From NCBI GenBank assembly GCA_050916095.1, contig CP050901.1, positions 1,655,474 through 1,719,473 of the forward strand: a stretch of DNA of 64,000 nt, in the 5' to 3' direction. This document shows positions 7,163 to 38,393 of this stretch, in pieces (position 1 is the first letter of the stretch; every line of letters begins with the position of its first letter). The notes below the pieces were generated by a model. The model was not told the origin of the DNA, searched no databases, and saw only the letters and a program-made list of their open reading frames with translations. This DNA comes from Rhizobacter sp. Lineage in GTDB: Bacteria > Pseudomonadota > Gammaproteobacteria > Burkholderiales > Burkholderiaceae_C. A program made the position numbers and the translations under genes.

Positions 7163-7585
7163 TCAGTTTCCTGGCTCGGTCACAAACCCCAGCTTGAGCA
7201 GACCCGAACGCCGCACGGCAGCCATGGTTTTGGCCACGTGTTCGTATTCCACTTTGCGGTCACCGCGAATGAAGATCTCGGGTTGAGGCGCGCTTTTGGC
7301 CGCTATTTCCAGGCGCTGCGCAAGCGCTTGCTCGTCCAGCCTGTCGTTGTTCCAGAACACCGCCCCATCCGTCGCAATCGACAGGTTGATGGATTCGGGT
7401 TTCACCACCTGAGACGTGTTTTCTGCCCGGGGTAAATCCAGCTTCACCGTGTGGGTGAGCACCGGCACGGTGATGATGAAGATGATCAGTAGCACCATCA
7501 TCACGTCGATCAGCGGCACCATGTTGATGTCGCTGACCACGTCGTCGCTGCTGCTGTCCAGTCCACTGCCGAAGGCCATGGTCAC
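7163..7585 (-). CDS. exbD: biopolymer transport protein ExbD/TolR
   Basis: 140 aa with the typical NMVPLIDVMMVLLIIF transmembrane segment. Confidence 0.85.
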   Translation of the reverse strand: MTMAFGSGLDSSSDDVVSDINMVPLIDVMMVLLIIFIITVPVLTHTVKLDLPRAENTSQVVKPESINLSIATDGAVFWNNDRLDEQALAQRLEIAAKSAPQPEIFIRGDRKVEYEHVAKTMAAVRRSGLLKLGFVTEPGN

Positions 7586-9210: not shown

Positions 9211-9230
9211 AGGGCTGATTGTAGCTCGCA

Positions 9231-9251
9231 AATGAGAATGATTCTTATTAC
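9231..9251. promoter_or_regulatory. candidate Fur box upstream of tonB-exbBD
   Basis: AATGAGAATGATTCTTATTAC resembles the 19-bp Fur consensus GATAATGATAATCATTATC. Lies about 75 nt upstream of the tonB ATG. Confidence 0.45.
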
Positions 9252-9269
9252 TGAATGGGTTTCAAATCA

Positions 9270-12613: not shown

Positions 12614-12633
12614 GATGGAAAATTATATATACA

Positions 12634-12652
12634 AATGCGAATCATTCGCATT
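12634..12652. promoter_or_regulatory. candidate Fur box (near-palindrome) upstream of the DUF4198 operon
   Basis: AATGCGAATCATTCGCATT, a near-perfect palindrome close to the Fur consensus. Adjacent AT-rich stretch AAAATTATATATAC. Confidence 0.5.
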
Positions 12653-12706
12653 AAAATGATTGTCTCCTGTCAGCACAGACCAACTGACCGGTGTTGATGA
12701 ACCTGC

Positions 12707-12769
12707 CACCCCGCACCCCGCACCCCGCACCCCGCACCCCGCACCCCGCACCCCGCACCCCGCACCCCG
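12707..12769. repeat. heptanucleotide tandem repeat (CACCCCG)x9
   Basis: Nine perfect tandem copies counted directly, followed by a degenerate tenth. Lies in the divergent intergenic region between the DUF4198 operon and the DUF2325 gene. Confidence 0.9.
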
Positions 12770-12927
12770 CCAGCCCGCGCCAGCCAGTGCTCCTCGAAAA
12801 GGAATGCTGCCCATGCCGCGTCAGTGCCCCATCGCCCGAAACACCCGCTTTCCTTGCGCTACGCCACCACAGAATATGCGGTTGCGCTGTATTGAGTTTG
12901 CGCCCAAGCGACTTGCCGGAATGTCCC

Positions 12928-14623: not shown

Positions 14624-14975
14624 GGCGAGCCATCGTGAAGTCCAGACCTTCGCGCCGGGGCCGAAACAAGCGCCAAGCCGAGCGAAGTGCCGCAGAACAC
14701 CGGCGCCTGGCTTGGCGGCGTGAGCGTTGGCGAGATGGGTTCACCGGTGCCGTGGTTGCCGGTGTTGTGGGGGCGATATTTTGGATTTTCCCGCCCTCAA
14801 TACCGGGTGGCGGTTGGGACGCTGGGCCTCTGGTGTCGTTTGTGTGGTGATGTGAGGGCCGCCAACGCCCGGGGCACAATCAATGGCTGCAAACTCATCC
14901 AGGAGCCCCCACCATGCAAGGCGACCCCCAAGTCATTACTGACCTTGCCTCTGTAATCCGTATCCCATAACCGAG

Positions 14976-15872
14976 TCACGAATTGGCTTGCATGGCCTGG
15001 GCCGCAAACCAGCTTTGCTCGAACTGCATCGGACTGACATAGGCCAGAGTCGAGTGCAGCCGGGCTTGGTTGTACCAAAGCAGCCAGGCCATGACCTCGT
15101 CTTTGGCTTGCCTCCTGGTTTCAAAGCGCTGCCCATGTAGGCGTTCTACCTTCAGTGACCCGAACAAGGTCTCGCTGCACGCATTGTCCCAACAGTTGCC
15201 CCGCCTGCTCATGGACGCCTGAATTCCGTACTCACTGAGCACGTCCCTGAAGTCTTGGCTTGCGTATTGACTGCCTCTGTCGCTGTGGAAGATCAGCCCT
15301 GCGCCTTTGTCTGGATGTCGCTTGAACCATGCCATGCGCAGCGCATCAATGACGATGTCGCGTGTCATGTCTTGCCGCAAGCTCCAGCCCACCACTTGAC
15401 GGCTGAAGAGGTCAATCACCACTGCCAGGTACAGCCAGCCCTCTTGGGTGTCGATGTAGGTGATGTCCCCCGCCCACACCTTGTCAGGCTCTTGAACGTT
15501 GAATTGCCGCTCCAGCAGGTTGGGTGCAATCGGCAAATCATGTTTGCTGTCGGTGGTGATCTTGAATCTGCGTTTGCCTTTGGCGCGAATGCCGTGCAAT
15601 TGCATGAGCTTTTGCACCCGGTCTTTGCCCACCCGGATGCCGCGTGCCAGCAGTTCTTTCCACATGCGAGGCCAGCCGTAGCTGGCCCTGACCTGGGCGT
15701 GAATTGCTTTGATGTGTACCAGCAAGGCGTCATCACTGAGGTGGCGTCGTTGCGCCGCACTGGCCCGCCGCAGGAAGTGCTCGTGATACCCGGCCACGCT
15801 GACACGCAGAACCCGGCACTGCACAGAGATTGGCCACACCCGCCGGTGGCTTTGTATGAAGGCGTACTTCAC
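14976..15872 (-). CDS. IS3-family transposase OrfB (DDE integrase core)
   Basis: 298 aa, rve/DDE domain. Overlaps OrfA by 4 bp, probably expressed as an OrfAB fusion by -1 frameshifting. Confidence 0.9.
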   Translation of the reverse strand: MKYAFIQSHRRVWPISVQCRVLRVSVAGYHEHFLRRASAAQRRHLSDDALLVHIKAIHAQVRASYGWPRMWKELLARGIRVGKDRVQKLMQLHGIRAKGKRRFKITTDSKHDLPIAPNLLERQFNVQEPDKVWAGDITYIDTQEGWLYLAVVIDLFSRQVVGWSLRQDMTRDIVIDALRMAWFKRHPDKGAGLIFHSDRGSQYASQDFRDVLSEYGIQASMSRRGNCWDNACSETLFGSLKVERLHGQRFETRRQAKDEVMAWLLWYNQARLHSTLAYVSPMQFEQSWFAAQAMQANS

Positions 15873-16168
15873 GTCGATCCCTTTGCAAAGTACGCCGTGG
15901 CCTTTTCCAGGATGTCGCGCTCCATCTTGACCCGCGCCAGCTCTGCCCTCAAGCGGCTGATCTCCATTTGTTCGCTGCTTACCTTGACCCGGCTGTCAGC
16001 GCCCTTGAGTTTGCCTTCGCGGTGCGCTTTGATCCAGTTGAACAGCGTCTGCTCAACCACCCCAAGCGTCCTGGCCGCTGCCGCCATGCTTTGGCCGCCT
16101 TCCACCAGCCGCACCGCCTCGAACTTGAACTCCTGCGTGTACCTCGCCCTTTTGGCTCTCTTCGTCAT
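15869..16168 (-). CDS. IS3-family transposase OrfA (HTH)
   Basis: 99 aa, MTKRAKRARYTQEFKFEAVRLV...ILEKATAYFAK, typical of IS3 OrfA. Confidence 0.9.
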   Translation of the reverse strand: MTKRAKRARYTQEFKFEAVRLVEGGQSMAAAARTLGVVEQTLFNWIKAHREGKLKGADSRVKVSSEQMEISRLRAELARVKMERDILEKATAYFAKGST

Positions 16169-17112
16169 TTCCGCTCTCCTTTGCTTGCGATTGAATCACT
16201 CAGCAAGGGATACGGTTTTCGGGGGCAAGGTCATTACCGCGCTGCAAGCGCAACTCAGAAACGAACTCACGGCCATCAACCAGTATTTCGTCCACTACCG
16301 CATGTTCAAACACTGGGGTTTTGAGAAGATTGCCAAGAAGGAGTACGAGGAGTCCATTGGCGAGATGAAACACGCCGATGCGTTGATGGAGCGCATCTTT
16401 GCGCTCGACGGTCTGCCCAATTTGCAAGACCTGGGCAAGTTGTTCATCGGTGAAACTCTGGTGGAAGCACTGCGTTGCGACCTCACCTCTGAGCAAGGGG
16501 CACAGCAAACCATCAAAGACGGTATTCATACCTGCGAGGCCGCCCGAGACTATGTGTCACGCGACCTGCTGCAAGGCATTTTGGAAGACACCGAAGAACA
16601 CATCGACTTCCTGGAAACCCAGCTCGATCTGGTAGCCAAGGTGGGTGAGCAGAACTACCTTCAGTCGCAGATGGGTTGACTTTTGATGGGTGGACTCAGT
16701 CGTCGAACGTCAGCTGAGGCACCTCCGATACCGTGACTTGCTCGCAGTGCTCGCCAGGGCTGCGATAGCTGTCACGGGGCCAGCACCCCGATGGTGTCCA
16801 GATCTTCAATGCTCTGCTCACGGCAGGAGTCTCCGGCCGACATTCAAAACAGTGAGTGCTCCGACGCGAAGCGTTGTCGAGCGACCATGTGTGGACCCGC
16901 CGCCATCACCCGGCGAGTCGCTTGGCCCAACGGCAACGCCGGAGAACATCAGGCCAAAAAGCCGCTTGTCCACAGTCCGGCCAAGGGTAAGCGTGGAAGC
17001 CGCAGGTGTAAGCGCGGCGCGCTCTTGTGCATCGCTTTGCCCTCGTGTGTCTTATAGAAGCAGTTTCTGCCGTGACAGGCGGGTTAACGATGGCCGTCAG
17101 CTTGGGCGCGGA

Positions 17113-17131
17113 ACGTGTTGTAATGCGAATC
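17113..17131. promoter_or_regulatory. candidate Fur box upstream of bfd-hemP
   Basis: AATGCGAATCGTTCTCATT is the same variant as the box at 12634. It is about 440 bp upstream of bfd, so the regulatory link is uncertain. Confidence 0.35.
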
Positions 17132-17568
17132 GTTCTCATTTATAGTATCCGAACTGGTCTGTTATGCCAAAACCAATTCACGACAGAACCCACCCGCGAA
17201 GGGCTGTGGCCGGTTTAACAGATCGTTCAGCCACATCGCCCGCTAGGGCGCTATCTCCGTACTCTGGAGGAGTCGATCTTGAAACATCTCCTGCCTAATT
17301 GCCGAGCCGCGACGCTCACGCGAGTTGTTGCGCTGCCGAGGAATTCACAGCTGTCTTGGCTCTCTACGGCCATCAGTCGGTTGAAGGCTGAGGCTCGAGG
17401 CTCGATTTTGGGTACCGCCCATCTGCTCATTCAGTGCGATCAAGGCAGTGCCTGCGGGCATGAATCCAGAAAAGACGGGCTCACTCGCTTATGTTTTATC
17501 CATGCATCGCAAAACAACGGCCCGTTCCTGGGCGGTTCTGGGGGGCGGAGCGCCGAAGGAGCACAAGC

Positions 17569-17820
17569 ATGATCGTGTGCATTTGCCACCGCGTCTCCGA
17601 CCGGGACATTCACCGCGCTGTTCACGAAGGCTGCCGCAGTTTTGAAGACCTGCAAGATGAATTGCGCGTGGCCACAGGCTGTGGGGCGTGCACGCGCTGC
17701 GCAGCCCATCTTTTCGAGGCACAAGTGCAGGCCTGCTCGAAGGTTTGTTCTGCGGAAACGTCAGCCACTTGCTCGGCTGGTTTGCAATCGTCGGTGAACT
17801 TTTTGCAGGTGGCCGCATGA
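17569..17820 (+). CDS. bfd: BFD-like [2Fe-2S]-binding protein (bacterioferritin-associated ferredoxin)
   Basis: MIVCICHRVSDRDIHRAVHEGCRSFEDLQDELRVATGCGACTRCA with CxC...CxxC. RBS AAGGAG. Confidence 0.8.
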   Translation: MIVCICHRVSDRDIHRAVHEGCRSFEDLQDELRVATGCGACTRCAAHLFEAQVQACSKVCSAETSATCSAGLQSSVNFLQVAA

Positions 17821-18038
17821 ACGAAAACTCCTCGGGCGCGCCCCTGCCACAGCCCGTCCAACCGGACCAGCAGGGTGACTTTGTTTTCACCCATTCCCAC
17901 CGTAACGCAGGCCAACCCGTGCGGCGAATCACCAGCGCCCAGCTTTTTGGTACCAACCAGGAAATTGAAATCGAACACGGCGGCAGTTGTTATCGACTGC
18001 GGCAAACCGCCTTGGGAAAACTCATCATGACCAAGTAG
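17817..18038 (+). CDS. hemP: hemin uptake protein HemP
   Basis: 73 aa, ...RITSAQLFGTNQEIEIEHGGSCYRLRQTALGKLIMTK. ATGA overlap with bfd. Confidence 0.75.
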   Translation: MNENSSGAPLPQPVQPDQQGDFVFTHSHRNAGQPVRRITSAQLFGTNQEIEIEHGGSCYRLRQTALGKLIMTK

Positions 18039-19080
18039 CGCATCGTTTACTAAGCGATCACGTTTTTAAAATTTTTGGGTCTGGGCTCCCACTCGAATCG
18101 TGCTCTGGTACTGCTGTGCTGAATTCACAGCAGTGTCCATTCGCGGCGTTGTCGCAGCTTTTTCGAGCAGCGCAGATAGCACGCTGGGTTTTGACCGTCC
18201 AAGTCTCACCTCAGTGGCAAGGTGCTTCGACTTCGATGGCACGACTCGTTTTGTTGATCTCACAAGCGCTGCAGTGGCAAACGCAAACGACGTGTATCAG
18301 CGAGGTTTTTGGGTGGCCTGTATCAGCCGTGCTTTTGGCGATTTTTAGTGGCCATTTGGCGCGCCCAAATCACGCTACCGAAAAGGGTTCTAACCCGCAG
18401 AGCTTTCGGTTGGCGAGCACGGTTACCACATTGACGGGTATAGCGACCCATTGCAAACTGAAGACTCTTGCCGGACCACTGTTCCGGTCCCATCGAGGGA
18501 GAAACAGGCCGGGTTCCTGCTTCCGGTCCCAAGAAGGAAAAACAGGCGTCGCAGTCGTTACCTGCCTCAGAGAACTTTTTTAGTCTCTCCCGTGCATAGG
18601 CGCAAGCCTCTGCACCCGTTCAAAAGACGCGCTGCTGTGCACCGGCTGAGCAGCGACAGTCTCGTGCCCCCGTGGCCTCTATGCACTGCGCTTGTGCGCC
18701 GCCCGGTAAAGAAGGCCACCGTTTTTTTTTAAGCGCACCCAGCCACCGCTGCTTGCGCCGCGAATTGCAAGAGCCAGCGTCGTCACTGGCGGCTAGCTGA
18801 CAGTGACGACGCTCTAACATGGCTTTCTCCCCTGTCAAGGGCCCAATTTTTGCCCCGTGACGGGGTGAAGTGACGAGCAAATGGAAGGCCCAAGCCATCG
18901 TTGGCAACGGACGCAAAATGCCGTTGTCAAGGCTGCTGATGAGCGCCGCACAGAGCCTCGAGGTCGCAGATTATTTTGACCCCTCCCCCCACTGCGGGAA
19001 TTTTTACGCCCACCCCCAACGTCAGTGGGCCAGAGGACTCAGGCCCTGGGCTTTCAGTTTGCCTAAGAATTTTTTTAGTG

Positions 19081-19620
19081 GATGAGGACTTGCTGCCCTT
19101 GTCCCATGGCGCGGTTGAATCTGCGCCCGATTGACTTGCGTGGTGACAGCCCTGCTGTCACCACGCCGCCGAGTCCCCCGTCAGAGGACGCTCGAAGGTC
19201 AAGCCTTCGATTCGCAAGGGGTTGCCCCCTTCACACTGGAGTGCGGTGTCGAACCGCCCCCGCTTTGAGTTGCCACGGCTTGACCGTGGCTGTCTCCGCC
19301 AGATTCCCGTCAGAGGATCAGCGAAGGTTAGTTTTTTGCCTTTGCAGTGGATGAGGTTCTGATGACCTTCATCCAGCGGCGCGGTTCGCCCCGCGCCCAA
19401 AGTCTCCGCATGGCCACAGCTCCGCTGTCGCCATGCCGCCAGGTTCCCCGTCAGAGAACTTCAGAAGGTCAAGCCTTCGGATTGCAAGGGTTTGCGCCCT
19501 TCACCTTTGGTTGCGGCTTGTCCCGCACCGCCCTTGAGTTGCCACGGCTTGACTGTGGTGGCCCACGTCAGATCCCCCGTCAGAGGATCAACCACTGAAC
19601 GTGTGCGAAGCACACCCCTT
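19081..19620. repeat. two tandem ~270-bp repeat units (~75-80% identical) with conserved hairpins
   Basis: Both units begin GATGAGG..., contain CCCGTCAGAGGA sub-repeats (4 copies), and have hairpins TGGTGACAG/CTGTCACCA and GCCACGG/CCGTGGC that keep pairing through partly compensatory changes. Confidence 0.6.
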
Positions 19621-19862
19621 GGACCCTGGGTCAATGGTCTGCTGTGTGAGCTGTACCCACAGGTACGACACACAGTGCCACATGCGCGTGCAACGCAGGC
19701 AAGTTGTACCCCTTTGCACAAACGGGATTGGTGTCCCGTGTCCCTTGTGATTCCTACTCGCTGCGGCGTTTGGGATGGACAGAAACACTTACCGATTTTT
19801 TGGCACCACGTTTTCATTTTTGGTTTTCTTGTTTTTGCTCCGCTGTTTTCAAGAGGTACCCC

Positions 19863-20729
19863 ATGCGCAACCTGAACCACGATTTCAAGAACCTTGCCCG
19901 TCGCAACCGAGATGGGTCGTTTGCGACCCAGCATGACCGAGAGGTCATGCTGACCTTGGTCGCGAATCAATTGCACGAAGGGGGCTTCCGGCATCTACGG
20001 GCCACGGGGGTGCGCTCCAAGCATGTGGAGCATTTGGTGAACCGCTGGCATGAAGAAGGCATCAGCCCCGGCACCTTCAAGAACCGGATGAGCGCTTTGC
20101 GTTGGTTGGCCGAGAAGATCGGCAAACAAAACATCGTGGCCCGTGAGAATGCGGCCTATGGCATTGCGGATCGGCGCCACGTGACGAATGAATCCAAGGC
20201 CCAGTTGTTGGAAATCGCACGCCTTGATGTGGTGACCGATCCGTACACGGTGTTGTCGCTGAGGCTGCAAGAAGCCTTTGGTCTGCGGCGGGAGGAAAGC
20301 ATCAAGCTGCAGCCCGTTTGGGCCGATCGTGGCGATGTGTTGCGACTCAAGGCCAGTTGGACCAAAGGCGGCAAGGAGCGGGAAGTTCCGATCGTCACTG
20401 ATGTACAGCGCCTAGCGTTGAACGATGCCAAACAGTTGGCGGGTTCAGCGTCCTTGATCCCTGAAGGCATGTCCTACCGCGACCAACTCAACCGCTTCAA
20501 GGCGCAAGCGGCCAAGGCGGGCATCAACCGGGTGCATGGGCTGCGGCATCAATACGCGCAGCGGCGGTATCAACAGCTCACCGGATGGAAGGCTCCCGCA
20601 GCGGGTGGGCCAACTTCAAAGCAACTCAGTGCGGAGCAGAAGGCGTTGGACCGGCAAGCACGCCTTGTTGTCTCGCGTGAGCTGGGTCATGAGCGCGAGC
20701 AAATAACTTCGGTTTATTTAGGCCGCTGA
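19863..20729 (+). CDS. tyrosine recombinase / phage-type integrase family protein
   Basis: C-terminal HGLRHQYAQRR ... LGHEREQITSVYLGR (H-x-x-R and catalytic Tyr). Start trimmed to MRNLNHDFKNLA. Confidence 0.7.
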   Translation: MRNLNHDFKNLARRNRDGSFATQHDREVMLTLVANQLHEGGFRHLRATGVRSKHVEHLVNRWHEEGISPGTFKNRMSALRWLAEKIGKQNIVARENAAYGIADRRHVTNESKAQLLEIARLDVVTDPYTVLSLRLQEAFGLRREESIKLQPVWADRGDVLRLKASWTKGGKEREVPIVTDVQRLALNDAKQLAGSASLIPEGMSYRDQLNRFKAQAAKAGINRVHGLRHQYAQRRYQQLTGWKAPAAGGPTSKQLSAEQKALDRQARLVVSRELGHEREQITSVYLGR

Positions 20730-20763
20730 ACCAGAACCGCAATGCATGACTGGTCAGACCGCC

Positions 20764-21135
20764 ATGAACACGCTGGACCTGGTTCAAGCCGCACACCTGC
20801 TAAAGGTGCATCCAAAGACCTTGGAGCGTCTGGCACGCAGTGGTGCGGTTCCGGCCTGCAAGGTGGGACGCGCCTGGGTCTTTGTCGACGACTTGCTTCT
20901 TGAAATGCTGGTGTCAAAATCGACCTCGCGTGTGTCCGTGGTCGACTTACAGGAGAACTCTGAATGTCGCTCTACAGACGCAAGGACTCACCATTTTGGT
21001 GGGTCAAACTCCCGCTCATTCGCGGCGAGTCGAAGCCTTTACAGCAAAGCACTGGGACTGCCGATAAGCGGCAGGCGCAGCAGGTCCATGACCAGCTCGC
21101 CGCCGCCCGATGGGAGCAAGAACGGCTTGGTGTGA
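20764..21135 (+). CDS. AlpA/Xis-like helix-turn-helix excisionase-family protein (3' extent uncertain)
   Basis: MNTLDLVQAAHLLKVHPKTLERLARSGAVPACKVGRAWVFVDDLLLEML is a classic phage regulatory HTH. The ORF as drawn overlaps the int start by about 170 bp. Confidence 0.5.
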   Translation: MNTLDLVQAAHLLKVHPKTLERLARSGAVPACKVGRAWVFVDDLLLEMLVSKSTSRVSVVDLQENSECRSTDARTHHFGGSNSRSFAASRSLYSKALGLPISGRRSRSMTSSPPPDGSKNGLV

Positions 21136-21998
21136 AGGCCCGGCACACCTGGGAAGAGGCGGTACTGCGCTGGCTCTTGGAAACGAAGCACAAGGCCACG
21201 CACGAAGATGACAAGGCAAAGCTTCGCTGGCTGGATTCTTACCTTGGAGGAAAGTACCTCGACGAGATCGACCGAACGCTGATTGACCGGATCAAGTTTG
21301 ACCGCGAAAACGTCTCTTCGCACTCAACAACAAACCGCTACTTGGCTTTGGTGAGAGCGATTCTCAAACGTGCTTGCAACGAGTGGGAATGGCTGGAACG
21401 GGTGCCCAAGTTCAAGTTGTTCAAGGAAACCGAAGGCCGGGTTCGTTCATTGACACCGCAGGAATTTCAGACGCTGTTGAATGAACTGCCGGAGCACTTG
21501 TTCGACATGGCGGTGTTCGCAGTGGCAACCGGGCTCAGGCAAGCCAACGTGAAGGGCTTGCAGTGGTCACAGGTGGACTTGGAACGACAACATGCCTGGA
21601 TTCCTGGAAGCCAGCACAAGAATGGCAAGCCGCATTCGGTGCCTTTGAACGACATGGCCTTAACTGTGTTGGGCAGGCAACTGGGCAAGCACCCGAGTTG
21701 TGTGTTCACTTACCAGGGTCAAGCCATCGAGCAAGTCTCCACGCGGGCTTGGCGGCGGGCGCTGGAGCGGGCAGGGATTGCGGACTTTCGGTGGCACGAT
21801 TTGCGGCACACGTTTGCGACATGGCACCGGCAGGCCGGAACACCCACCCATGAGCTACAGCGGCTCGGTGGTTGGAAAACCGGCGTGATGGTGGAACGTT
21901 ACGCCCATGTCGCACCCGAGGCGTTGCAAAGTGCGGCCAGCCGGTTGGATGGGTTTGGTGGCTACGATTTGGCTACGCCACAAAGGACAACGGCTTAG
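20964..21998 (+). CDS. int: tyrosine-type site-specific integrase (phage/island integrase adjacent to tRNA)
   Basis: 344 aa with R...HDLRHTF...Y catalytic signature (WHDLRHTFATWHRQAGT ... VERYAHV). Ends 29 bp from the 3' end of tRNA-Asn. Confidence 0.85.
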   Translation: MSLYRRKDSPFWWVKLPLIRGESKPLQQSTGTADKRQAQQVHDQLAAARWEQERLGVKARHTWEEAVLRWLLETKHKATHEDDKAKLRWLDSYLGGKYLDEIDRTLIDRIKFDRENVSSHSTTNRYLALVRAILKRACNEWEWLERVPKFKLFKETEGRVRSLTPQEFQTLLNELPEHLFDMAVFAVATGLRQANVKGLQWSQVDLERQHAWIPGSQHKNGKPHSVPLNDMALTVLGRQLGKHPSCVFTYQGQAIEQVSTRAWRRALERAGIADFRWHDLRHTFATWHRQAGTPTHELQRLGGWKTGVMVERYAHVAPEALQSAASRLDGFGGYDLATPQRTTA

Positions 21999-25338: not shown

Positions 25339-28300
25339 TCAGCTTCCTTTGCCTTTGGGTGCGGTTTGGCGGGACCGTACGTCTTCCAGTTGTTTGGCCA
25401 CACGCTCCACTTCGTTGTGAATGGAATGGTCGAGGTTGAGGCGGTTTTCTGTGGCCGCAATCAAAGGCATCAGGATTTTTCGGTAGGTGACTGCTATCTC
25501 CAGCATCGCCTCGGCCAGGCGCACGCCTTCTGACTCTGTTGGTTTGGGCACTGCGGTCTGCGGCGGTTTGAGGCCATCCACCGCACGTGCCACGTCGAGC
25601 AAGGTGGTGGCGATGCGGGTGCTGCCGTCGGTGTCGCTGCCGCCGAGTTTGCGTTGGCGCACGAACTCTTCGCAAATGGCCTGCCAGCGCTGGGCTTCAT
25701 CGGGCGTGGGTGTGCCCAGCAACTGCGCCAGCTTGAGCAGGTTTTCTTCTGCGCCGGTGGTAAGGGTTTGCGCCTCGCCCCGGTAGTGGTCGCGCAGCAG
25801 CGCGTCCAACTCGTCGTCGCGCATCTGCGGGTTGATCTGCGCTGCGAGTTTGGTCATGTTGCGGTAGCTGCCTTGCAGCTTGAACGGCGGCTCGGTGCGG
25901 TAGTCGTCTTTTTGAGCGGCGGACTCGATGTAATTCAGATTGACCTTGAGCAGCAGGTCCCGGGCGCGGAACAGGCGCTTGAAGAGTTGTGTGAGTTCTT
26001 CGAGCTCAGCAGCGCCGTAGGGATGAGTGAACTGGCTGTCTGCCACCTCCTGGCCTTGCGCACGTTGCACGAGCAGGTGCACGTCTTTCGGGTCGCGTGA
26101 CGACAGCGGCAGCAGCACAGGGTTGGCGGTGAGGCTGTTCTCCAGGTAGGACAGCGCGAAAAGCGCTTCGCGGCCCGACAGCACATCGCCGAGGTTGTAG
26201 ATGTCGGCCCGGTTGGCCAGCATGTCGGGAATCTTGAACACATCACCCGACTCGGTGTAGGGGTTGCCCGCCATCACCACCGCAAAACGTTTGCCGCGCA
26301 GGTCGTAGCTGCGCGGCTCGCCATTCCACACGCCTTCTATGCGGCGTGTGCCGTCAGCCAAGGCGATGAACTTTTGCAAGAACTCGGGGTGGGTGTGCTG
26401 AATGTCGTCCAGGTAGAGCATCACATTGCTGCCCATGGCCAGGCCGAGGTTGAGTTTTTCCAGCTCTTGTTTGGCCGCACTGTGTTCGGCCGACGCCGGA
26501 TCAATCGAGACCACATCGTGGCCCAGCGCCGGGCAGTTGATGCGTACAAAAACCATGCCCAAACGGTCGGCCACATACTCCATCAAGGTGGTTTTGCCAT
26601 AGCCGGGCGGGGAGATCAGCAGCAGCAGCCCCATGCGGTCAGTGCGGGATGCATCACCTGCCGCACCCATTTGTTTGGCCAGGTTGTCGCCGATCAGGGG
26701 CAGGTAGACCTCGTCGATCAAGCGGTTGCGGACAAAGGTGGACAGCGGCTTGGCCTGGAACTGGTGCAGGCGCAATCGTTTCTTTTCTTGGCTGATGAGC
26801 TCGTGGCGCAGACGCTGTAGCGACTCGAAGGCCGGCAATACCTGGTTCTGATGGTGCAAAAAGCGCTGCCAAAAATCATTGAGATTGAGCCTGAGCTGGC
26901 CTTGCTGTAGACGCGGATGTTCGCTCAACAAACCGTCAACCTGTATTTCGAGTGTGGCGTTGATGCGTTGCCTCGGCGTTTGCAGACATAGCACTGTGGC
27001 GGCTTCGTCCGCCCAGCGCCGGTTGTCATGGTCTTGCGTGTGGCTGGCCGCATAGGCTCGCGTCCAGTCGCGCGCCAAACGCCAGCGCTCGGCGGGGCTA
27101 CTTGCGGCGAGGTCCCGTTGCCAATCGGCCCAGCGGCCCCGTTGCTCCAGCTCGCGCCGCAAGCTGCTGGCCAAATCGTCGGCGGGGCCAGACACCACCC
27201 AGCTCGCGGTCGAGCCATCCATGCTGGCCAATTGCCGCACCAGGTAGGCGGCCGCCTGGGCGGCGCGGGTGTCGTTCAGCGCCTTGTCGCGTTCATTCGG
27301 TGCTTCATCCCCGTGCATGAACTCGCTGGCAAAACGTTGCAAAGCCAGGGCGGTGTCGCCTTCCAGAGTGATCAGCGCTTGCTGCGATGAAAACAGTTGC
27401 TGCATTTGCAGCGCGGCGCGGGCGCGGCGTTGCAATGCCTCGCAGGCATCGGCCTTCAAGCCTTGAGTCGCGTAGAGCATGGCCCAGGCCCGCTCCACCG
27501 GACCGAAGGCCAGCAAACCCGCACCGTCTTGCATGCGCACCAGGGCAGTCAGGATGCGCGTCGCATCTTCGTCGTGCACACCTTTTTGATAGCCCTCTTG
27601 GTAGCGCGGAGCCGCCAGGGTACGCACCAACTCGATGACAGGTGTGGCTCCGGTGCTGACTTCATCGGCCCTGCCCACCGCCGCAACCAGATCGGCCCAG
27701 GGCAAGGTATGTTGGCCTTGCAGAACCGCTTGCATCAGGCAACCGGCAAGGTATTCGGCGCGGCTGATATCGGCGGTCTCAGAGGCCAGGCTTTGTTCCC
27801 AATAAGCCTTCAGTGCGTCCAGGCGCGCATCGTTGACTGGCGCCATGTAGTCGGTGCCCGTGATCTGAAACACCGGGCCTTGTTGGCTGGGCAACAGGCT
27901 CAGGTCCAGGGCCTGGCGCTGGATGGTGAAAGCATGGCGCCCGAAACGCAGGGTGTTGCCGTCGGCAGCGACCAGATCGCCTTTGTCGCGGACCATGCGC
28001 AAGGCCTGGTCGCGGGCCGTCTTCAATCGGGTGGAAATGTCATCGGCCTGGACCGCCGCGCCCAGGCTGCGCAGGTCGTCCATCAGCTGGCGCAGCTTGG
28101 CCAGCAACGGGTCGCCTGCGAAGTAGCCGTGGATCTGGCCCACCTCTGCGAAGCCCGAGACCCGGCGCGGGATGCCGTCCAGAATGCGGCCTGCTGCCTC
28201 GGCCACGGCCTGCGCGCGACGCTGCCGCGCTTCCACCAGGCTTTGCCGGCGTGCTGACAGCGCATCCACCACGGCTTCGCGTTTGTTGGCTACATCGGTG

Positions 28301-30564
28301 ATGAACACATCGTGTTCGGCGAAGCGGCCTTCGAGTTCTTCTAGCTGGGCCAACAAACGAGTCAGGGCCTCGTCGCATTTTTCCGGGGTGTCGGCAAACT
28401 CCAGCGCGTTTTCCACCGCCTGGCCGAAGAGTTTGAACTGCGCGCCGAACTCAGCGGCAGACTCAGAAGCGCCCAAGTTTTTGCGCCGACCCCGTGCTTC
28501 GGCACGTTGCCGGTTGATCTCGCCGTAGAGCGTGGAAATGCGGTCGAGGATGGCGGTGCGCACCACCGCATCACCTCCGGGCAGGGTGCCGAGCTGTTCG
28601 GTCAGCAGGTCCAGTCCCAGGGCTTGTGCGTCCAGTTGGGTGAGCAGTTGCGTCAGGGCTGGACTGGTTTGGGCTTGCGCCAGGTCAGCGGCGCTTTTGA
28701 TCAAGGCCTGCTGGTGGCCGTCAAAGGCGTGTGGGTCGGCCAGAAAGGCCATGGCGCGGCCGCCCACTTGTTGCTGCTGGTCTTGCAGCACATCATCCAT
28801 GGCCTCAATGGCGGCGAGGTCGGCATAACGCAGTTCTTTGAGCGGCTGCAAGCGACCGCGCTGCTGCCGCAGCCTGCCCAGTGCCGCGACGAAGTCATCG
28901 GGTTTGCGCCACAAGGTGCTGGCAATGTCGGTCAGCAGGGTATGTTGCTCGCCCTCAAACTGCTGCAAGGCGCGGGCCGTGTCGCGGCGAATGCTGTCGA
29001 CTTTTTCAAACTCGGTCAGGGTCTGGCGTGCACCCTCCACGATGCCATTCAAGTCATCGGCCAAGCCCTGTGTTTCAGGGGCATCCAACCAGAAATAGGC
29101 GTCGCTGATGCGTGTGCACTGGCGAATCAAGTCTTCGTAAGCGGTGCGGGTGGGCACTTGTTCGCGCACCGCGCGGGTGATGCCCATCAGGTCGGACACG
29201 CCGCGCACCAGTTCGGCATTGCCGACTTTGGCGAAAAAACCGGTGCCGCGTGGCAGCGCGGCGGCATGGTCTTCACTGGCGAAGGGCGTTTGCCACAACT
29301 GCATCTGGTGCACGCGGGTGGGCTCGTTGCCATCAGAGAGGAAAACCAAAATGCGCCCGTCGGGAAACCGCGCGTAACCATGGGCCACGATGGGCGCAGC
29401 CAGGGTTTTGTTGATCAGGTTGTAGGCAAAGAGCACATAGTGGCCGCCACCGGGTTGGTAGAAGACATAGAGCACCTCTTCGCCGTGTGGTGAGCGAATC
29501 AACCGCTTGAAACGCAAGCCGCTGCTCAAGTCTGCTGGCAGGTCAAATCGTTTGTAGTCGCCAGATTGCAAGTACATGCCGCCCGGAAAAATAATGCCGT
29601 GGTCTTCGGGCAGCTGCACGCAGGACACGCCTATGGCATCGATGCGCTCAACCTTTTGCGTTCGGGTGTTGAACACCAGGTAGCGGACGGTGCTTTCGCG
29701 GTAGGGCTTGATGCGCAGCAGAATCAGCAGGCCCAAGCGTGCCCAGGAGAACTCTGCATCCACCAGGGCCTGGTGTTTGTCTTCCACCGGTTCGCTGTAA
29801 ATGCCCAGTCCAGTTTCGGTGTTGTTCTCAATTTTGACGGTGAGGTCGCCGCCCATGGTTTCCACAAACACGGTGTCGAGCACATTGATGTGCGGGTGTT
29901 TGCCGCCAACGTGGTCCTCCCGTGTGGCTACTGTCCACTCGAAATCGTGGGTGGCGGGCAGGGCGATGTCGCGCTCACCACGGTTGTCCAGGTAACGGAT
30001 GCTGCCGTCGCGTTCAATGCTCCATCGGAACACCCTGACATCGTGCAACTGTTGGCCAATCTGGAAGGCCGCCAACAGTTTGTCTTGCGTGACGCGCAAC
30101 TGGATCAATGAGGCTTGTTTGTAATAGGCGTAGAGCTCGCGGAAATCGGCCACAAAACGCGTGTCGTCCAGGAAGGTGCCGGCTGTGGCAACCGCTTCCA
30201 GTTCGTCCGCCCCGTCGTGCACAGCCAATCGGTAAAGCGCAAACACGTCAGCAATGGCGGTTTCTTTGCGCAGGCCGATGAACACGTTGTAGCCCAGCAG
30301 TACCAGGTCACCGATGCGCACCATGTCGCGGGCCACACAATTGTTTTCGGTGCGTGCGCGCGTGCGCAGCAGCAGACTTTGTTCTGAGCGCCCAAACTCA
30401 GTGAGCCGCGCCTCATTGAGTTGCTGGATTTTGGCCAGCAGGCTGTCACCTTGGGTTTGCAGGCGTTTTTTCAGCAGCTCGTAGCTGCCACCTTCGGACA
30501 CCAAGCGCTCCACCGCGTCTTGTGCGGGTGCCGTGGCCGAGGTAGATGATGGGGCGTCAGACAT
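25339..30564 (-). CDS. giant (1741-aa) AAA+ ATPase-domain protein of unknown function
   Basis: Uninterrupted 5.2-kb ORF. C-terminal P-loop NTPase: Walker A ISPPGYGKTTLMEY, Walker B VMLYLDDIQ, AGNP sensor-like motif (AAA_5/MoxR/McrB-like). The N-terminal ~1150 aa has long helical/coiled-coil stretches and no family I can name. Confidence 0.8.
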   Translation of the reverse strand: MSDAPSSTSATAPAQDAVERLVSEGGSYELLKKRLQTQGDSLLAKIQQLNEARLTEFGRSEQSLLLRTRARTENNCVARDMVRIGDLVLLGYNVFIGLRKETAIADVFALYRLAVHDGADELEAVATAGTFLDDTRFVADFRELYAYYKQASLIQLRVTQDKLLAAFQIGQQLHDVRVFRWSIERDGSIRYLDNRGERDIALPATHDFEWTVATREDHVGGKHPHINVLDTVFVETMGGDLTVKIENNTETGLGIYSEPVEDKHQALVDAEFSWARLGLLILLRIKPYRESTVRYLVFNTRTQKVERIDAIGVSCVQLPEDHGIIFPGGMYLQSGDYKRFDLPADLSSGLRFKRLIRSPHGEEVLYVFYQPGGGHYVLFAYNLINKTLAAPIVAHGYARFPDGRILVFLSDGNEPTRVHQMQLWQTPFASEDHAAALPRGTGFFAKVGNAELVRGVSDLMGITRAVREQVPTRTAYEDLIRQCTRISDAYFWLDAPETQGLADDLNGIVEGARQTLTEFEKVDSIRRDTARALQQFEGEQHTLLTDIASTLWRKPDDFVAALGRLRQQRGRLQPLKELRYADLAAIEAMDDVLQDQQQQVGGRAMAFLADPHAFDGHQQALIKSAADLAQAQTSPALTQLLTQLDAQALGLDLLTEQLGTLPGGDAVVRTAILDRISTLYGEINRQRAEARGRRKNLGASESAAEFGAQFKLFGQAVENALEFADTPEKCDEALTRLLAQLEELEGRFAEHDVFITDVANKREAVVDALSARRQSLVEARQRRAQAVAEAAGRILDGIPRRVSGFAEVGQIHGYFAGDPLLAKLRQLMDDLRSLGAAVQADDISTRLKTARDQALRMVRDKGDLVAADGNTLRFGRHAFTIQRQALDLSLLPSQQGPVFQITGTDYMAPVNDARLDALKAYWEQSLASETADISRAEYLAGCLMQAVLQGQHTLPWADLVAAVGRADEVSTGATPVIELVRTLAAPRYQEGYQKGVHDEDATRILTALVRMQDGAGLLAFGPVERAWAMLYATQGLKADACEALQRRARAALQMQQLFSSQQALITLEGDTALALQRFASEFMHGDEAPNERDKALNDTRAAQAAAYLVRQLASMDGSTASWVVSGPADDLASSLRRELEQRGRWADWQRDLAASSPAERWRLARDWTRAYAASHTQDHDNRRWADEAATVLCLQTPRQRINATLEIQVDGLLSEHPRLQQGQLRLNLNDFWQRFLHHQNQVLPAFESLQRLRHELISQEKKRLRLHQFQAKPLSTFVRNRLIDEVYLPLIGDNLAKQMGAAGDASRTDRMGLLLLISPPGYGKTTLMEYVADRLGMVFVRINCPALGHDVVSIDPASAEHSAAKQELEKLNLGLAMGSNVMLYLDDIQHTHPEFLQKFIALADGTRRIEGVWNGEPRSYDLRGKRFAVVMAGNPYTESGDVFKIPDMLANRADIYNLGDVLSGREALFALSYLENSLTANPVLLPLSSRDPKDVHLLVQRAQGQEVADSQFTHPYGAAELEELTQLFKRLFRARDLLLKVNLNYIESAAQKDDYRTEPPFKLQGSYRNMTKLAAQINPQMRDDELDALLRDHYRGEAQTLTTGAEENLLKLAQLLGTPTPDEAQRWQAICEEFVRQRKLGGSDTDGSTRIATTLLDVARAVDGLKPPQTAVPKPTESEGVRLAEAMLEIAVTYRKILMPLIAATENRLNLDHSIHNEVERVAKQLEDVRSRQTAPKGKGS

Positions 30565-30645
30565 GAGGAATCAGTGGAGTCCGGTTGGAGGGCCGAGGTG
30601 GTTGGTGCCGCGCTTCAAAACGCGCACACGGCCTTTAGAGGGCCT

Positions 30646-30894
30646 TTAAAGGCTGTGTTGTGCACGCAAATCGGCCACCGCCTTGCGCATGTCATCGCTC
30701 AAATCAGACGGCGTCAGTTTGGCGATGATGCTGCGCAGGATGCGCTTTTCGTTGTCGTCCACCGCGCCGTCTCGCTGGGCAATGGCGACAATTTTCTTCA
30801 GCTCTGCCACCTCCAGCACACCGTCGTTGGAAAAACACTGGATGGAACGGAAGGCCATCTCTAAGTAGTCGCGGGATTCAGCCATGTTGAACAT
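30646..30894 (-). CDS. small TerB-like (tellurite-resistance TerB / DjlA-N-like) domain protein
   Basis: 82 aa with duplicated DG(x5)E pattern (SNDGVLEVAELKKIVAIAQRDGAVDDNEKRIL). Sits between the flotillin and the giant ATPase gene. Confidence 0.5.
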   Translation of the reverse strand: MFNMAESRDYLEMAFRSIQCFSNDGVLEVAELKKIVAIAQRDGAVDDNEKRILRSIIAKLTPSDLSDDMRKAVADLRAQHSL

Positions 30895-30929
30895 TCCTTA
30901 TCGTTGAAAATTGGAAGTGAGCTGAGCCT

Positions 30930-33071
30930 TCAAGACTTACCCAAACTCTTGAGCAGGTTTTGCAACGCTGTCTTCTGAGACTCATCACCGTCGCGCATGA
31001 CCTTGCTCAGCAGCGAGGCCACGCTCAGGTTCTGAATTTCGCTGGCTGAACTGCCCAAAGCGCCAAGCAGCTCGCGCAGGTCTGGGATCACATCGCGCTC
31101 ACCGGCCAATTGGTCTTTGAAGGCCACTTGCAAGGTTTTGCTTTTGTTCACCACACCGTCGATGCCTTTGCCCACGGACAAGGCATTGACGAAGCGGTCG
31201 AAGTAGTCGCCTTCGCCACCCACGATGTCGATCTTGGCATTGGTCAAAGCGGTACCCAAAACATCCGCTTGCTCGCGGGCGATGGAGGTTTGCGCCTCAA
31301 TGCCTTTGACGGTTTCAATGTGGGCCTTCTCCAATTGCATGCGGAATTCTTCGTGGGCCCGGGTCTCGGGGCTCATGGCGCTCATGGCTTCGAACTTGTC
31401 ACGCAGGCCCTTGGCCTCAGCCTGGAAGCGGACTTCAATGGTGTTCGCATCGGCTTGGCCCGACTTCACCACCGCGTCGGCGTCGGCCAGGCGCACCTGC
31501 ACGTCGGCCAAACCGAGTTTTTCTTTGCCTGTGGCTTCGGCTTCGAGTTTGGCTTGCAGGCCCGCCGCTTCGGCTTGGGAGCGCAGTTCAATCACCTTGG
31601 CTTCGGATTGGCCTTCTTTCAAAGTGGCCTCGGCGCCGGCAGTGCGCACATGGACATCGGCCATGCCTTGTTTCTCGATGGCATCGGCTTGCACCATGGT
31701 GACCTTGGCCGCGGCCAAACCAGGTGCGGCGCTGAGGGCCTCAACGCCTTCTGCTTCGCGTTTTTTGGCTTCCGCGTCTTTCTCAGCCACTTTCAATCGC
31801 GCGTCGGCCAGGGTGGTTTCTTCCACTGCTTTGTGGCGGGCACGGCGTTCTTGGGCTTCGGCGGCTTTGACTTCGGTGATGAGTTTTTCCTCGGCTTGGC
31901 CTTCCGCCAGGATCACCGTTGATTGTTTGGTGCGGCTGGCGTCGGCCACCACACGCAGCTCTTTGATGGCTTCTTCTTGTTCGGCCACGGTGCGCTCGAC
32001 CACGATGCGCTCGCGGATGACGTCGGCGATGGCTTTCTTTTGCACCTCGACGGCTTTGTCTTTCTCGATTTTCTGCAGCGTCACTTCTTTCTCGCGGTCC
32101 ACCACCTCCAGCTCGCGGGCACGAATGACTTTTTCCTCTTCAATCGCCACGGCACGCTTGCGGTTGTTCTCGGCCACTTCTTTTTCACGCAGCACGTTTT
32201 CTTGCTGCACGGACACCGACTGTTCGGCCTGCAAGCGAGCCATCTCAGACTTCGTTTTTTCTTCGGACTGAACTTTTGATGTTTCGGCCTCTTCGCGGGC
32301 CTTCACCGTGGCCACCTCACGCGACTGGCGGGCCTGCGCATCGGCCGCTTGGCGCTCCAGCTCCAGCAGGGCTTCTTGGGTTTCGACGTTTTTCTTTTTG
32401 ATCTGCATCTCTTCGTTGCGACGCAGCTCGTTGGTGCGCACATGCTCCACCGCCGTCAATTCGGTGATTTTTTTGATGCCCTGCGCATCCAGGATGTTGT
32501 TGGAATCGAGTTTTTCCAGGGGTGTTTGTTCGAGGTAGTCGATGGCTGCATCGTCCAGCACATAGCCCGAGAGGTCGTCGCCAATCTGGCTGATGATCTC
32601 GTCTCGGAAGCGGTCACGCGCCTGGTACAGGTCGACGAAATCCATGGCTTTGCCAACAGTTTTCAAAGCCTCTGAGAACTTGGCGGAGAACAGCTCCTCC
32701 AGCGTCTCTTGGCTGGACGCTCTTGCGCAGCCTATGGCCTGCGCTACCTTCAAGACGTCGTCGGCGGTTTTGTTAACGCGCACGAAAAATTTCACTTTGA
32801 TGTCGGCGCGAATGTTGTCGCGGCAAATCAGGCCCTCGAGGCCCGAGCGGTCAATTTCAATGGTTTTGACCGAAATCTCCATCAACTCAGCCTTGTGGAT
32901 GATGGGGTAGACCATGCGGCCAGTGAACGTCACTTCCGGTTCGGCGCGTAAGGTGTTGATGATGAGCGCATGGCCTTGTTCTATCTTGCGATAGAACTTG
33001 GCAAACATGGCGACGAAACACAGCAGAAAGAAAGCCGCTAAACCCGCGGCGACGATGACGGTGAACTCCAT
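30930..33071 (-). CDS. yqiK: flotillin/SPFH (band 7) family inner-membrane protein, YqiK-like
   Basis: N-terminal TM segment, SPFH domain, then a very long Ala/Glu-rich coiled-coil repeat region. Start trimmed to MEFTVIVAAGL. Confidence 0.8.
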   Translation of the reverse strand: MEFTVIVAAGLAAFFLLCFVAMFAKFYRKIEQGHALIINTLRAEPEVTFTGRMVYPIIHKAELMEISVKTIEIDRSGLEGLICRDNIRADIKVKFFVRVNKTADDVLKVAQAIGCARASSQETLEELFSAKFSEALKTVGKAMDFVDLYQARDRFRDEIISQIGDDLSGYVLDDAAIDYLEQTPLEKLDSNNILDAQGIKKITELTAVEHVRTNELRRNEEMQIKKKNVETQEALLELERQAADAQARQSREVATVKAREEAETSKVQSEEKTKSEMARLQAEQSVSVQQENVLREKEVAENNRKRAVAIEEEKVIRARELEVVDREKEVTLQKIEKDKAVEVQKKAIADVIRERIVVERTVAEQEEAIKELRVVADASRTKQSTVILAEGQAEEKLITEVKAAEAQERRARHKAVEETTLADARLKVAEKDAEAKKREAEGVEALSAAPGLAAAKVTMVQADAIEKQGMADVHVRTAGAEATLKEGQSEAKVIELRSQAEAAGLQAKLEAEATGKEKLGLADVQVRLADADAVVKSGQADANTIEVRFQAEAKGLRDKFEAMSAMSPETRAHEEFRMQLEKAHIETVKGIEAQTSIAREQADVLGTALTNAKIDIVGGEGDYFDRFVNALSVGKGIDGVVNKSKTLQVAFKDQLAGERDVIPDLRELLGALGSSASEIQNLSVASLLSKVMRDGDESQKTALQNLLKSLGKS

Positions 33072-33126
33072 ATGATTCCTTTTTTTGTAGCGTGAAGTGT
33101 TGAGTGGAATGCTGGTGGCTGTCAGT

Positions 33127-33774
33127 TCAAAGCAATGCATCCGGTGACGGTCGAACCAAATAATGACGAGTGGTTTCGTTGTAGGCCACGATTTGCGCTT
33201 TGTCGCCCTTGACCAGGGTTTGAGGCGCTTGTGTCCAGACCCGGATGTGAACGTTGGTGCCCTGCTGTATCACCGCAGCGCGGCCAAAACGATCATCCAC
33301 ACGCTGGCTCAATACGACGCAGGTTTGTCCCACCAGGCCGGCATTGCCAACGGCGTGGTGGACGAAGAAGAGCCCTCGCATGGGACGAATCAACAGGGCC
33401 GTCAGTGGAATCGATGCCGCCAGGCTTAGCAGCAAGATGACGGTGCCGCTGACCCAAAAAATGAAGCCGCTGCCAAGGCTGGCCAAGACCCATTGGCCCG
33501 CCAGGCAACACAAGGTCCACGACAGCAGCACCAAGATGCTGACCACGATGGAAAACGGCACACCGTGCAAGCCCATGGCCACCGCGTAACCGGCGAGGGT
33601 GGACAGCTCGCCGGGGTCGCCGTCGGCCTGCAACTCCACTTCCAGGTCGAGACCGGTGGATTCGAAATCCACAAACCCCACCAAGGCCAGCAGCCAGTAC
33701 ACCAGCACCACCAGCAGCAGTGCGGTGAAGATGGCAGTGGGGTAACTCAATGCGGCACCGATAAAACGGTCCAT
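33127..33774 (-). CDS. yqiJ: NfeD-like membrane protein (YqiJ/DUF1449) with C-terminal OB-fold
   Basis: 215 aa, multi-TM N-terminus and soluble C-terminus. Canonical upstream partner of flotillin. Confidence 0.7.
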   Translation of the reverse strand: MDRFIGAALSYPTAIFTALLLVVLVYWLLALVGFVDFESTGLDLEVELQADGDPGELSTLAGYAVAMGLHGVPFSIVVSILVLLSWTLCCLAGQWVLASLGSGFIFWVSGTVILLLSLAASIPLTALLIRPMRGLFFVHHAVGNAGLVGQTCVVLSQRVDDRFGRAAVIQQGTNVHIRVWTQAPQTLVKGDKAQIVAYNETTRHYLVRPSPDALL

Positions 33775-33829
33775 GCTTTCCTCCCTCGATGCGTGATGGG
33801 CTTTTAGACCACCGTTTTTTGTGAGTGAA

Positions 33830-34165
33830 TTATCGGTGTGTGATGCTTTGCTGCGCGAAGCGGATCAGTTCCTGGGTCACGCGTTCTTTGATGGTTAGTT
33901 TGTCGTCTGGCGGTAACCCGTAACGTTGGGCGAGGACCTCATAGTCAGCCGTGGTCAACGATACGGTGAGCCTGGGGCGCTTGGGCCGGGTGGGCGCAGA
34001 CAACTGCAGCAGCGCCCGGATTTGGTCTGAAGTGGACAGGTTGTTGTGAAACGCAGCCGTGCGCACCGCTTGCAGCACGGTTTCTTCCACATCAAAGGCC
34101 ACCTGGACTGCACGCAGCGCGTCGTCTGACCCACTCCAGCGCGCCGGCTTGCGTTGCATGGTCAT
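33830..34165 (-). CDS. hypothetical protein
   Basis: 111-aa ORF with 4-bp overlap to the upstream PspA-family gene. Confidence 0.4.
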   Translation of the reverse strand: MTMQRKPARWSGSDDALRAVQVAFDVEETVLQAVRTAAFHNNLSTSDQIRALLQLSAPTRPKRPRLTVSLTTADYEVLAQRYGLPPDDKLTIKERVTQELIRFAQQSITHR

Positions 34166-34872: not shown

Positions 34873-34900
34873 GGGGGTCTCCCGGGCGTTGCGGGGTGCG

Positions 34901-38093: not shown

Positions 38094-38393
38094 ATGACGA
38101 AGAGAGCCAAAAGGGCGAGGTACACGCAGGAGTTCAAGTTCGAGGCGGTGCGGCTGGTGGAAGGCGGGCAAAGCATGGCGGCAGCGGCCAGGACGCTTGG
38201 GGTGGTTGAGCAGACGCTGTTCAACTGGATCAAAGCGCACCGCGAAGGCAAACTCAAGGGCGCTGACAGCCGGGTCAAGGTAAGCAGCGAACAAATGGAG
38301 ATCAGCCGCTTGAGGGCAGAGCTGGCGCGGGTCAAGATGGAGCGCGACATCCTGGAAAAGGCCACGGCGTACTTTGCAAAGGGATCGACGTGA
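38094..38393 (+). CDS. IS3-family transposase OrfA
   Basis: 99 aa, identical to 15869-16168. Confidence 0.9.
   Translation: MTKRAKRARYTQEFKFEAVRLVEGGQSMAAAARTLGVVEQTLFNWIKAHREGKLKGADSRVKVSSEQMEISRLRAELARVKMERDILEKATAYFAKGST

Follow-up and report, generated by a model that had tools for sequence, protein, structure and literature searches.

The 64,000-nucleotide stretch analysed here, which we call the window, comes from Rhizobacter sp. (assembly GCA_050916095.1, contig CP050901.1, positions 1,655,474 to 1,719,473 of the forward strand). It contains bfr, the gene for bacterioferritin (Bfr), split near its 5' end by an insertion sequence (IS) of the IS3 family; the genes bfd and hemP follow downstream. 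The host is Rhizobacter-like, and Rhizobacter is placed in the Sphaerotilaceae, Burkholderiales. The split gene and the sequence that interrupts it are made up of the following parts:

14914 to 16679, plus strand: bfr (split), with its ATG at 14914-14916, its stop at 16679, and an AGGAG ribosome-binding site at 14901-14905
14914 to 14939, plus strand: 5' fragment of bfr, 26 nucleotides (nt), made up of eight complete codons and the first 2 nt of codon 9
14936 to 14939, no strand: left copy of the target-site duplication TTAC, which is single in the empty site of contigs L093-L097
14940 to 16233, minus strand: IS3-family insertion sequence, copy 1, 1,294 bp with TG...CA ends
16234 to 16237, no strand: right copy of the target-site duplication TTAC, adjoining the right end of the IS
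16238 to 16679, plus strand: 3' fragment of bfr, opening with the third base of codon 9 and closing with the stop codon (residues 10-155)

The 5' fragment reads ATG CAA GGC GAC CCC CAA GTC ATT AC (14914-14939) and is the same as the 5' end of the intact bfr in L093-L097, five metagenome contigs described below. After position 14939 the bfr reading passes into IS sequence (TGACCTTGCC... / TGACCTTGCCTCTG...). The initial annotation, made from the sequence alone, had placed the IS after codon 9 of bfr (MQGDPQVIT / ALQAQL), and this placement is borne out by the TTAC duplication and by the gene that is recovered when the insertion is undone; strictly, the split falls inside codon 9, past its second base (nucleotide 26/27 of bfr). 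Removal of the IS and one TTAC in silico yields an in-frame, uninterrupted open reading frame (ORF) of 155 amino acids (aa), MQGDPQVITALQAQL... / MQGDPQVITALQAQLRNELTAINQYF.... The 3' fragment has neither a frameshift nor a stop codon, and it differs by 1 nucleotide from the empty-site allele.

The restored protein scores 225.6 bits against the NCBIfam bacterioferritin model TIGR00754 (cut-off 125.55), matches the ferritin-like four-helix-bundle domain PF00210 (E = 9.4e-37), and aligns with solved Bfrs gap-free over residues 1-154 (E = 2.6e-66 to PDB 5zur, a structure for which a literature search found no paper). It keeps the Met52 haem ligand and the ferroxidase ligands E18, E51, H54, E94, and H130. 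Position 127 (about 16590-16592 in the window) is Thr, within the motif DTEEH, where the Bfrs of E. coli and P. aeruginosa have Glu. Thr127 is shared by PDB 5zur and by every one of the 127 homologues (out of 130 retrieved) that the motif pattern matched, and it appears to be a clade-wide trait and no sign of decay. A helix bulge at this spot has been reported for a ferritin-type subunit (PMC11303784). At the DNA level, the restored bfr is colinear across the junction with the intact bfr of 80 other genomes from related Burkholderiales; in L003, for example, the identity is 80.6% over 469 nt.

The uninterrupted state of the locus exists in close relatives. A search for proteins identical to HemP pointed to a 21-kb contig (GCA_041443045.1 / JGI 3300059473) whose genes are in the same order as in the window and which carries a 155-aa ferritin-family gene in intact form. 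The intact protein, P0122, differs from the restored window Bfr at one residue (L70F) and is also encoded on the five further metagenome contigs L093-L097, which come from different samples. These read ...CAAGTCATTACCGCGCTG... / ...CCCCAAGTCATTACCGCGCTGCAAGC... at the empty site, with TTAC present once. Identity to the window is 99.8-100% in their left flanks and 97.6-99.0% in their right flanks, where four of the five show 1 mismatch and two short gaps. The locus thus offers a before-and-after picture of a genuine, simple transposition into bfr, with TTAC duplicated. The insertion is also recent, as shown by the near-identity of the two IS copies (2 differences in 1,294 positions), by the absence of decay in either bfr fragment, and by near-identical strains that keep the empty site. 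At residue 70 the window has the state of all other homologues, so the disrupted gene has gained no private change and the insertion is very recent. It is an ordinary strain-level mutation, strain-specific and of a familiar sort.

The inserted element is organized as follows:

14940 to 14966, no strand: terminal inverted repeat on the orfB side (IRR), TGACCTTGCCTCTGTAATCCGTATCCC
14976 to 15872, minus strand: orfB, 298 aa, HTH_21 plus the rve DDE integrase core
15869 to 16168, minus strand: orfA, 99 aa, helix-turn-helix, HTH_Tnp_1
15881 to 15884, minus strand: probable -1 frameshift motif A-AAG (AnG type), 20 nt ahead of the orfA stop codon
16207 to 16233, no strand: terminal inverted repeat on the orfA side (IRL), paired with IRR

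The inverted repeats are 27 bp long and imperfect, with 23/27 positions alike. OrfA matches PF01527 (E = 1.9e-18). OrfB matches PF00665 (E = 9.3e-31) and scores 346.3 bits against NF033516, the NCBIfam model of the IS3 transposase (cut-off 160); its catalytic residues are spaced D136(61)D198(35)E234, with K at +7 from E, and the match of the transposase to IS2 models is weak. The frame of orfB is -1 relative to that of orfA, and slippage at A-AAG would probably yield a 397-aa OrfAB fusion. Target duplications in the IS3 family range from 3 to 5 bp. We assign the element to this family because of its helix-turn-helix OrfA, its DDE OrfB, the -1 frame and AnG motif, the TG...CA inverted repeats, and the short target duplication; orfA and orfB in 0/-1 frames and the AnG slippery-motif rule, with other features, are described for the IS3 family (PMC5771124).

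Ten metagenome contigs that encode an identical OrfA hold the element with exactly the same termini and different flanks, and this recurrence supports the IS boundaries given above. The identity of the element is 99.7% in one of these contigs and about 94% in the rest. The element is mobile and multi-copy. The closest OrfB in PLSDB (84.6% identity) is encoded on a Sphaerotilus sulfidivorans plasmid, NZ_CP035707.1, followed by one of Polaromonas sp. P1-6 (83.9%); a megablast search of the IS DNA against the PLSDB plasmids gave no near match.

What the insertion means for Bfr depends on whether the 3' part of the gene can still be expressed. An IS3-family element of 1,294 bp transposed into bfr at nucleotide 26/27, duplicating TTAC, and thereby cut the native signals for the start of transcription and translation, together with codons 1-8, off from the other 146 codons. 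The native ATG now opens an 18-codon peptide, MQGDPQVITDLASVIRIP (MQGDPQVIT-DLASVIRIP), that stops inside the IS. Two longer frames run into the 3' fragment:

15255 to 16679, plus strand: 474-aa ORF, antisense to the transposase genes and running in frame into the 3' fragment of bfr
16185 to 16679, plus strand: hybrid ORF, starting at a TTG in the IS end and fused in frame through TTAC to bfr

The first 49 nt of the hybrid ORF (16 complete codons plus one base of codon 17) are derived from the IS. Its product would consist of MRLNHSARDTVFGGK, which contributes 15 foreign residues, followed by native Bfr residues 7-155; these native residues are kept because the IS end (...AAGGTCA) and the duplicated TTAC recreate the codons GTC ATT ACC (V-I-T). 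The sequence upstream of TTG 16185 is CCGCTCTCCTTTGC, and no purine run resembling a Shine-Dalgarno (SD) sequence precedes this TTG or the next one. The initial annotation had suggested that the outward-facing end of the IS may supply a promoter. Scans of the IS end gave this idea no footing: an outward σ70-like promoter was found neither at 9/12 matches nor in a lenient scan at 8/12. A weak terminator-like hairpin lies inside the IS on the plus strand (15829-15847).

Because no outward promoter is detectable, transcription of the 3' part would require read-through across 1.3 kb of antisense IS, and its translation would have to begin at the SD-less TTG in the IS end. Since the hybrid ORF has neither an SD sequence nor an outward promoter, Bfr is most likely absent or strongly reduced. 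Judged from these signals, bfr is very probably a null allele or a strong hypomorph, with expression of its 3' part absent or very low. The earlier statement that bfr is inactivated is upheld as far as the native ribosome-binding site, the start codon, and the first 6-8 codons are concerned, all of which are detached; the inactivation itself we infer, as an in-frame hybrid ORF retains residues 7-155.

No observation speaks against the structural reading. Two points weigh against a full loss of function. The hybrid ORF is in frame and keeps E18, E51, M52, H54, E94, and H130. The N-termini of ferritin-like cages generally tolerate extensions. The promoter scans use the σ70 consensus and can miss real promoters. 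As to the insertion itself, neither of the occupied junctions was found in the JGI metagenome contigs, and so the allele has so far been seen only in this assembly.

The in-frame hybrid with its retained ligands, together with the restriction of the replacement to residues 1-6 of Bfr, could be read to mean that the insertion has rewired bfr, with the hybrid ORF transcribed by read-through or from an unrecognised IS promoter and giving a functional Bfr subunit under changed regulation. Ribosomes could in principle cover the antisense frame through the IS, which has no stop for 474 codons, and the hybrid is labelled a bacterioferritin in GenBank. We nevertheless regard such rewiring as unlikely: neither TTG 16185 nor the next TTG has an SD-like sequence upstream, no outward σ70-like promoter appears even at 8/12 matches, the native frame terminates 18 codons in, and the plus-strand hairpin at 15829-15847 within the IS resembles a terminator. 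A little less likely again is the specific outcome in which the IS end provides a new start and a 15-residue N-terminus, so that a working hybrid Bfr is made outside native control and the insertion amounts to a regulatory and N-terminal swap, with no knockout.

Loss or strong reduction of Bfr, the outcome that we favour, need not translate directly into a phenotype. No second Bfr-like ORF was found in the 64-kb window with a profile hidden Markov model built from hits of 150-165 aa (E up to 10). Many bacteria encode Ftn as well, and a Bfr cage may be a heteropolymer that includes Ftn subunits (PMC8945002, PMC11303784). The fate of iron storage hinges on any ferritin genes that lie beyond the window. 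The initial annotation had gone on to predict the loss of Bfr iron storage, with possible effects on iron homeostasis or oxidative-stress tolerance; its reading is largely right, and it over-reaches on this phenotype, on the promoter idea, and on what it would have taken as a refutation (discussed below).

The hybrid ORF also shows how the disruption is masked in public records. GenBank entry XVJ69568.1, "MAG: bacterioferritin [Rhizobacter sp.]" (MAG, metagenome-assembled genome), is a protein of 164 aa, MRLNHSARDTVFGGKVITALQ..., that is the exact translation of 16185-16679. It is a member of the cluster, at 90% identity, that holds the nearest Bfr proteins; exact-protein look-ups of the window Bfd and of the 164-aa hybrid returned no record for either. 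As the initial annotation had warned, the 474-aa ORF at 15255-16679 is antisense IS sequence fused to the 3' end of bfr, and its frame has been confirmed. It is an artefact, an open antisense frame in DNA of 59% G+C that is in frame with the bfr remnant by chance, and the 164-aa GenBank call is a shorter form of the same trap. The annotation of XVJ69568.1 hides the disruption of bfr, the terminal sequence of the IS supplying the first 16 codons. Gene callers have in this way made a plausible 164-aa "bacterioferritin" from a remnant, and disruptions of this kind are invisible in protein catalogues.

It is improbable, more so than either form of a functional hybrid, that the IS was misjoined into bfr during assembly or that the occupied allele is a rare minority variant in a MAG consensus. 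The source does appear to be a metagenome-assembled genome, the IS is present as a repeat, and in metagenomes the empty-site alleles are common while occupied junctions were not found (JGI contigs). Against this, a perfect 4-bp duplication and gene halves that abut the true IS ends are what transposition produces, unlike a misjoin; one contiguous sequence contains both junctions; and a minority variant would be a real insertion all the same. The initial annotation had looked to related strains for a comparison of the bfr locus, and it held that a related strain with an intact, IS-free bfr would imply misassembly. The comparison did return an intact bfr with an empty site and a single TTAC, in L093-L097, and the conclusion to be drawn is the opposite one: empty sites in related strains, taken with the target duplication, confirm a real and recent insertion and no misassembly.

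The window contains a second copy of the element:

38029 to 39322, plus strand: IS copy 2, in opposite orientation to copy 1, with its own 3-bp duplication CAA

Copies 1 and 2 have 2 mismatches in 1,294 positions. Copy 2 interrupts a 290-aa ORF without a Pfam match (flanks 37253-38028 and 39323-39428) that sits between a 7Fe-type ferredoxin gene (39429-39752) and a ferredoxin-NADP-reductase-like gene. An empty site for copy 2 was sought via the neighbouring ferredoxin, and the search was uninformative; the gene content of the fdxA-reductase slot varies among organisms. With 21.8 kb between them, the inverted copies could readily serve as a substrate for inversion. There is next to no chance that the disruption of bfr is a by-product of a composite transposon formed by the two copies, or of an inverted 21.8-kb segment (16234-38028) between them: these near-identical inverted copies do bracket the bfr remnant (bfr'), bfd, hemP, two integrase genes, a TonB-dependent receptor gene, and others, but a separate matching duplication flanks each of them (TTAC/TTAC and CAA/CAA), the outer flanks of the pair (TTAC and CAA) do not agree with each other, and copy 1 is directly flanked by both halves of bfr and copy 2 by both halves of the 290-aa ORF, so that the target-duplication pattern rules out both events.

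Downstream of the split gene lie the partner genes and their putative promoter:

17118 to 17146, plus strand: promoter-like site TTGTAA-17-TATAGT, overlapping the Fur-box-like sequence TGTAATGCGAATCGTTCTC
17569 to 17820, plus strand: bfd, 83 aa, intact, Fer2_BFD, with a GAAGGAG ribosome-binding site
17817 to 18038, plus strand: hemP, 73 aa, intact, its start overlapping the bfd stop (ATGA)

Both genes had been described as intact in the initial annotation, and both proteins indeed exceed their Pfam thresholds. Bfd matches PF04324 at 44.7 bits (cut-off 26) and has the CxC...CxxC cysteines C4, C6, C38, and C41, the four ligands of a [2Fe-2S] cluster; against the E. coli-type equivalog PRK10509 it scores 28.6, below the cut-off of 75. 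HemP matches PF10636 at 56.9 bits (cut-off 25). The Fur-box-like site reported upstream of the two genes was likewise recovered, as a prediction: positions 17119-17137 match the consensus GATAATGATAATCATTATC at 13/19 positions, a level of similarity that shuffled windows reach about 1.7 times per 64 kb, and the site overlaps the promoter-like sequence. In related genera bfd has a promoter of like architecture: the motif AATGCGAA...TTCGCATT also stands upstream of bfd in L003, L004, L007, L009, and L025. In these five loci the Fur-box promoter lies about 10 nt from the bfd ATG, versus 420 nt in the window. A 44-codon ORF (17164-17298) begins 18 nt past the -10 element of the putative bfd promoter.

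The bfr and bfd genes are separated by a spacer of 889 bp. The spacer is unrelated to the IS, because it is also present in the strains with an empty site. The idea that it is itself a hidden element was rejected: it has no Rfam match, no convincing terminal repeats, and no copies elsewhere in the window. In the compared loci no copies of it were found beyond the Fur-box motif, and it contains no remnant of hmuV, the gene next to bfr in the sister contig L105. The 420-nt bfd leader folds no better than shuffled sequences (z = 0.27) and has no Rfam match. In the nearest sister lineages, represented by contigs L105 (Bfr 97% identical) and L107 (90%), the genes after bfr form a convergent haem ABC-transporter operon (hmuV/U/T, hemS, receptor). 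These two contigs do not have the spacer-bfd-hemP arrangement after bfr, and their synteny with the window ends exactly at the bfr stop codon.

Stored iron is released in P. aeruginosa and A. baumannii when Bfd docks onto Bfr over the haem (PMC7760384, PMC11303784). In the window, bfd-hemP, 0.9 kb downstream with a putative Fur-box promoter of its own, is structurally unaffected by the insertion, and Bfd would be left without its partner. Should Bfr be missing, this kind of haem-dependent iron release through Bfd would have no substrate, and bfd would be an orphan.

The wider neighbourhood has an iron-related character. Upstream of bfr lies a haem/iron-uptake cluster with genes for a TonB-dependent receptor, HemS, ExbD, ExbB, TonB, DUF3325, PepSY_TM, DUF4198, and DUF2325. 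Further Fur-box-like sites occur at 7469-7499 and 9228-9252 (13-14/19) and at 12630-12656, near the ExbD/ExbB, TonB, and DUF4198/DUF2325 genes; the third site was found by its similarity to the bfd Fur box. As predicted sites, they are consistent with an iron-regulated neighbourhood. Beside the site at 12630-12656, positions 12707-12770 hold a perfect tandem heptamer, CACCCCG, in 9 copies, which would encode PRTPHPA repeats if translation of the DUF2325 ORF began at its long GTG start; compared with the near-identical contigs L093 and L094, the window has about 49 nt more of this array, which makes it a variable-number repeat.

On the other side of hemP, a unit of ~270 bp is present in two tandem copies (19072-19600; about 77% identity) directly upstream of two adjacent tyrosine-recombinase genes (19704-21998; Phage_int_SAM_2/Integrase_1 and Phage_integrase). 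A short-read contig of an empty-site strain stops near the recombinase region, possibly at the edge of an integrated island. Farther along, the minus strand encodes (25339-35040) a 1,741-aa protein (DUF3686, DUF7902, AAA), then ORFs of 736, 215, and 111 aa without a Pfam match, and then PspA/IM30. The part comprising PspA and the 111-aa and 215-aa ORFs recurs beside ferredoxin/reductase genes in the unrelated contigs L098 and L102.

Together, these results make mainly a point about annotation and strain variation: one environmental Rhizobacter-like lineage carries a fresh IS in bfr, and sister strains from several metagenomes do not. The bfr insertion opens no long-standing question, and its value is cautionary, for annotation.

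The element resembles IS3, IS51, IS150, IS407, and IS911 in its size of ~1.3 kb and in its helix-turn-helix OrfA and rve OrfB, which lie in 0/-1 frames with an AnG motif. It also shares with the IS3 family the D(61)D(35)E spacing with K at +7, the imperfect TG...CA inverted repeats, and target duplications of 3-4 bp; it differs from the known members in that it is identical to none of the annotated elements compared. The restored Bfr is like the proteins described by TIGR00754 and the structures PDB 5zur, P. aeruginosa BfrB (3is7), and E. coli Bfr (1bcf) in its alignment over the length of the protein, in Met52, and in E18/E51/H54/E94/H130. It differs from known Bfrs in that its gene is split by an IS and, from those of E. 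coli and P. aeruginosa, in having Thr and not Glu at position 127. Like the Bfr-Bfd pair of P. aeruginosa and A. baumannii, the window has a bfd with four Cys ligands adjoining bfr. Unlike in that pair, 889 bp separate its bfd from bfr, bfd is coupled in translation to hemP, and the partner bfr is split, which would leave bfd orphaned.

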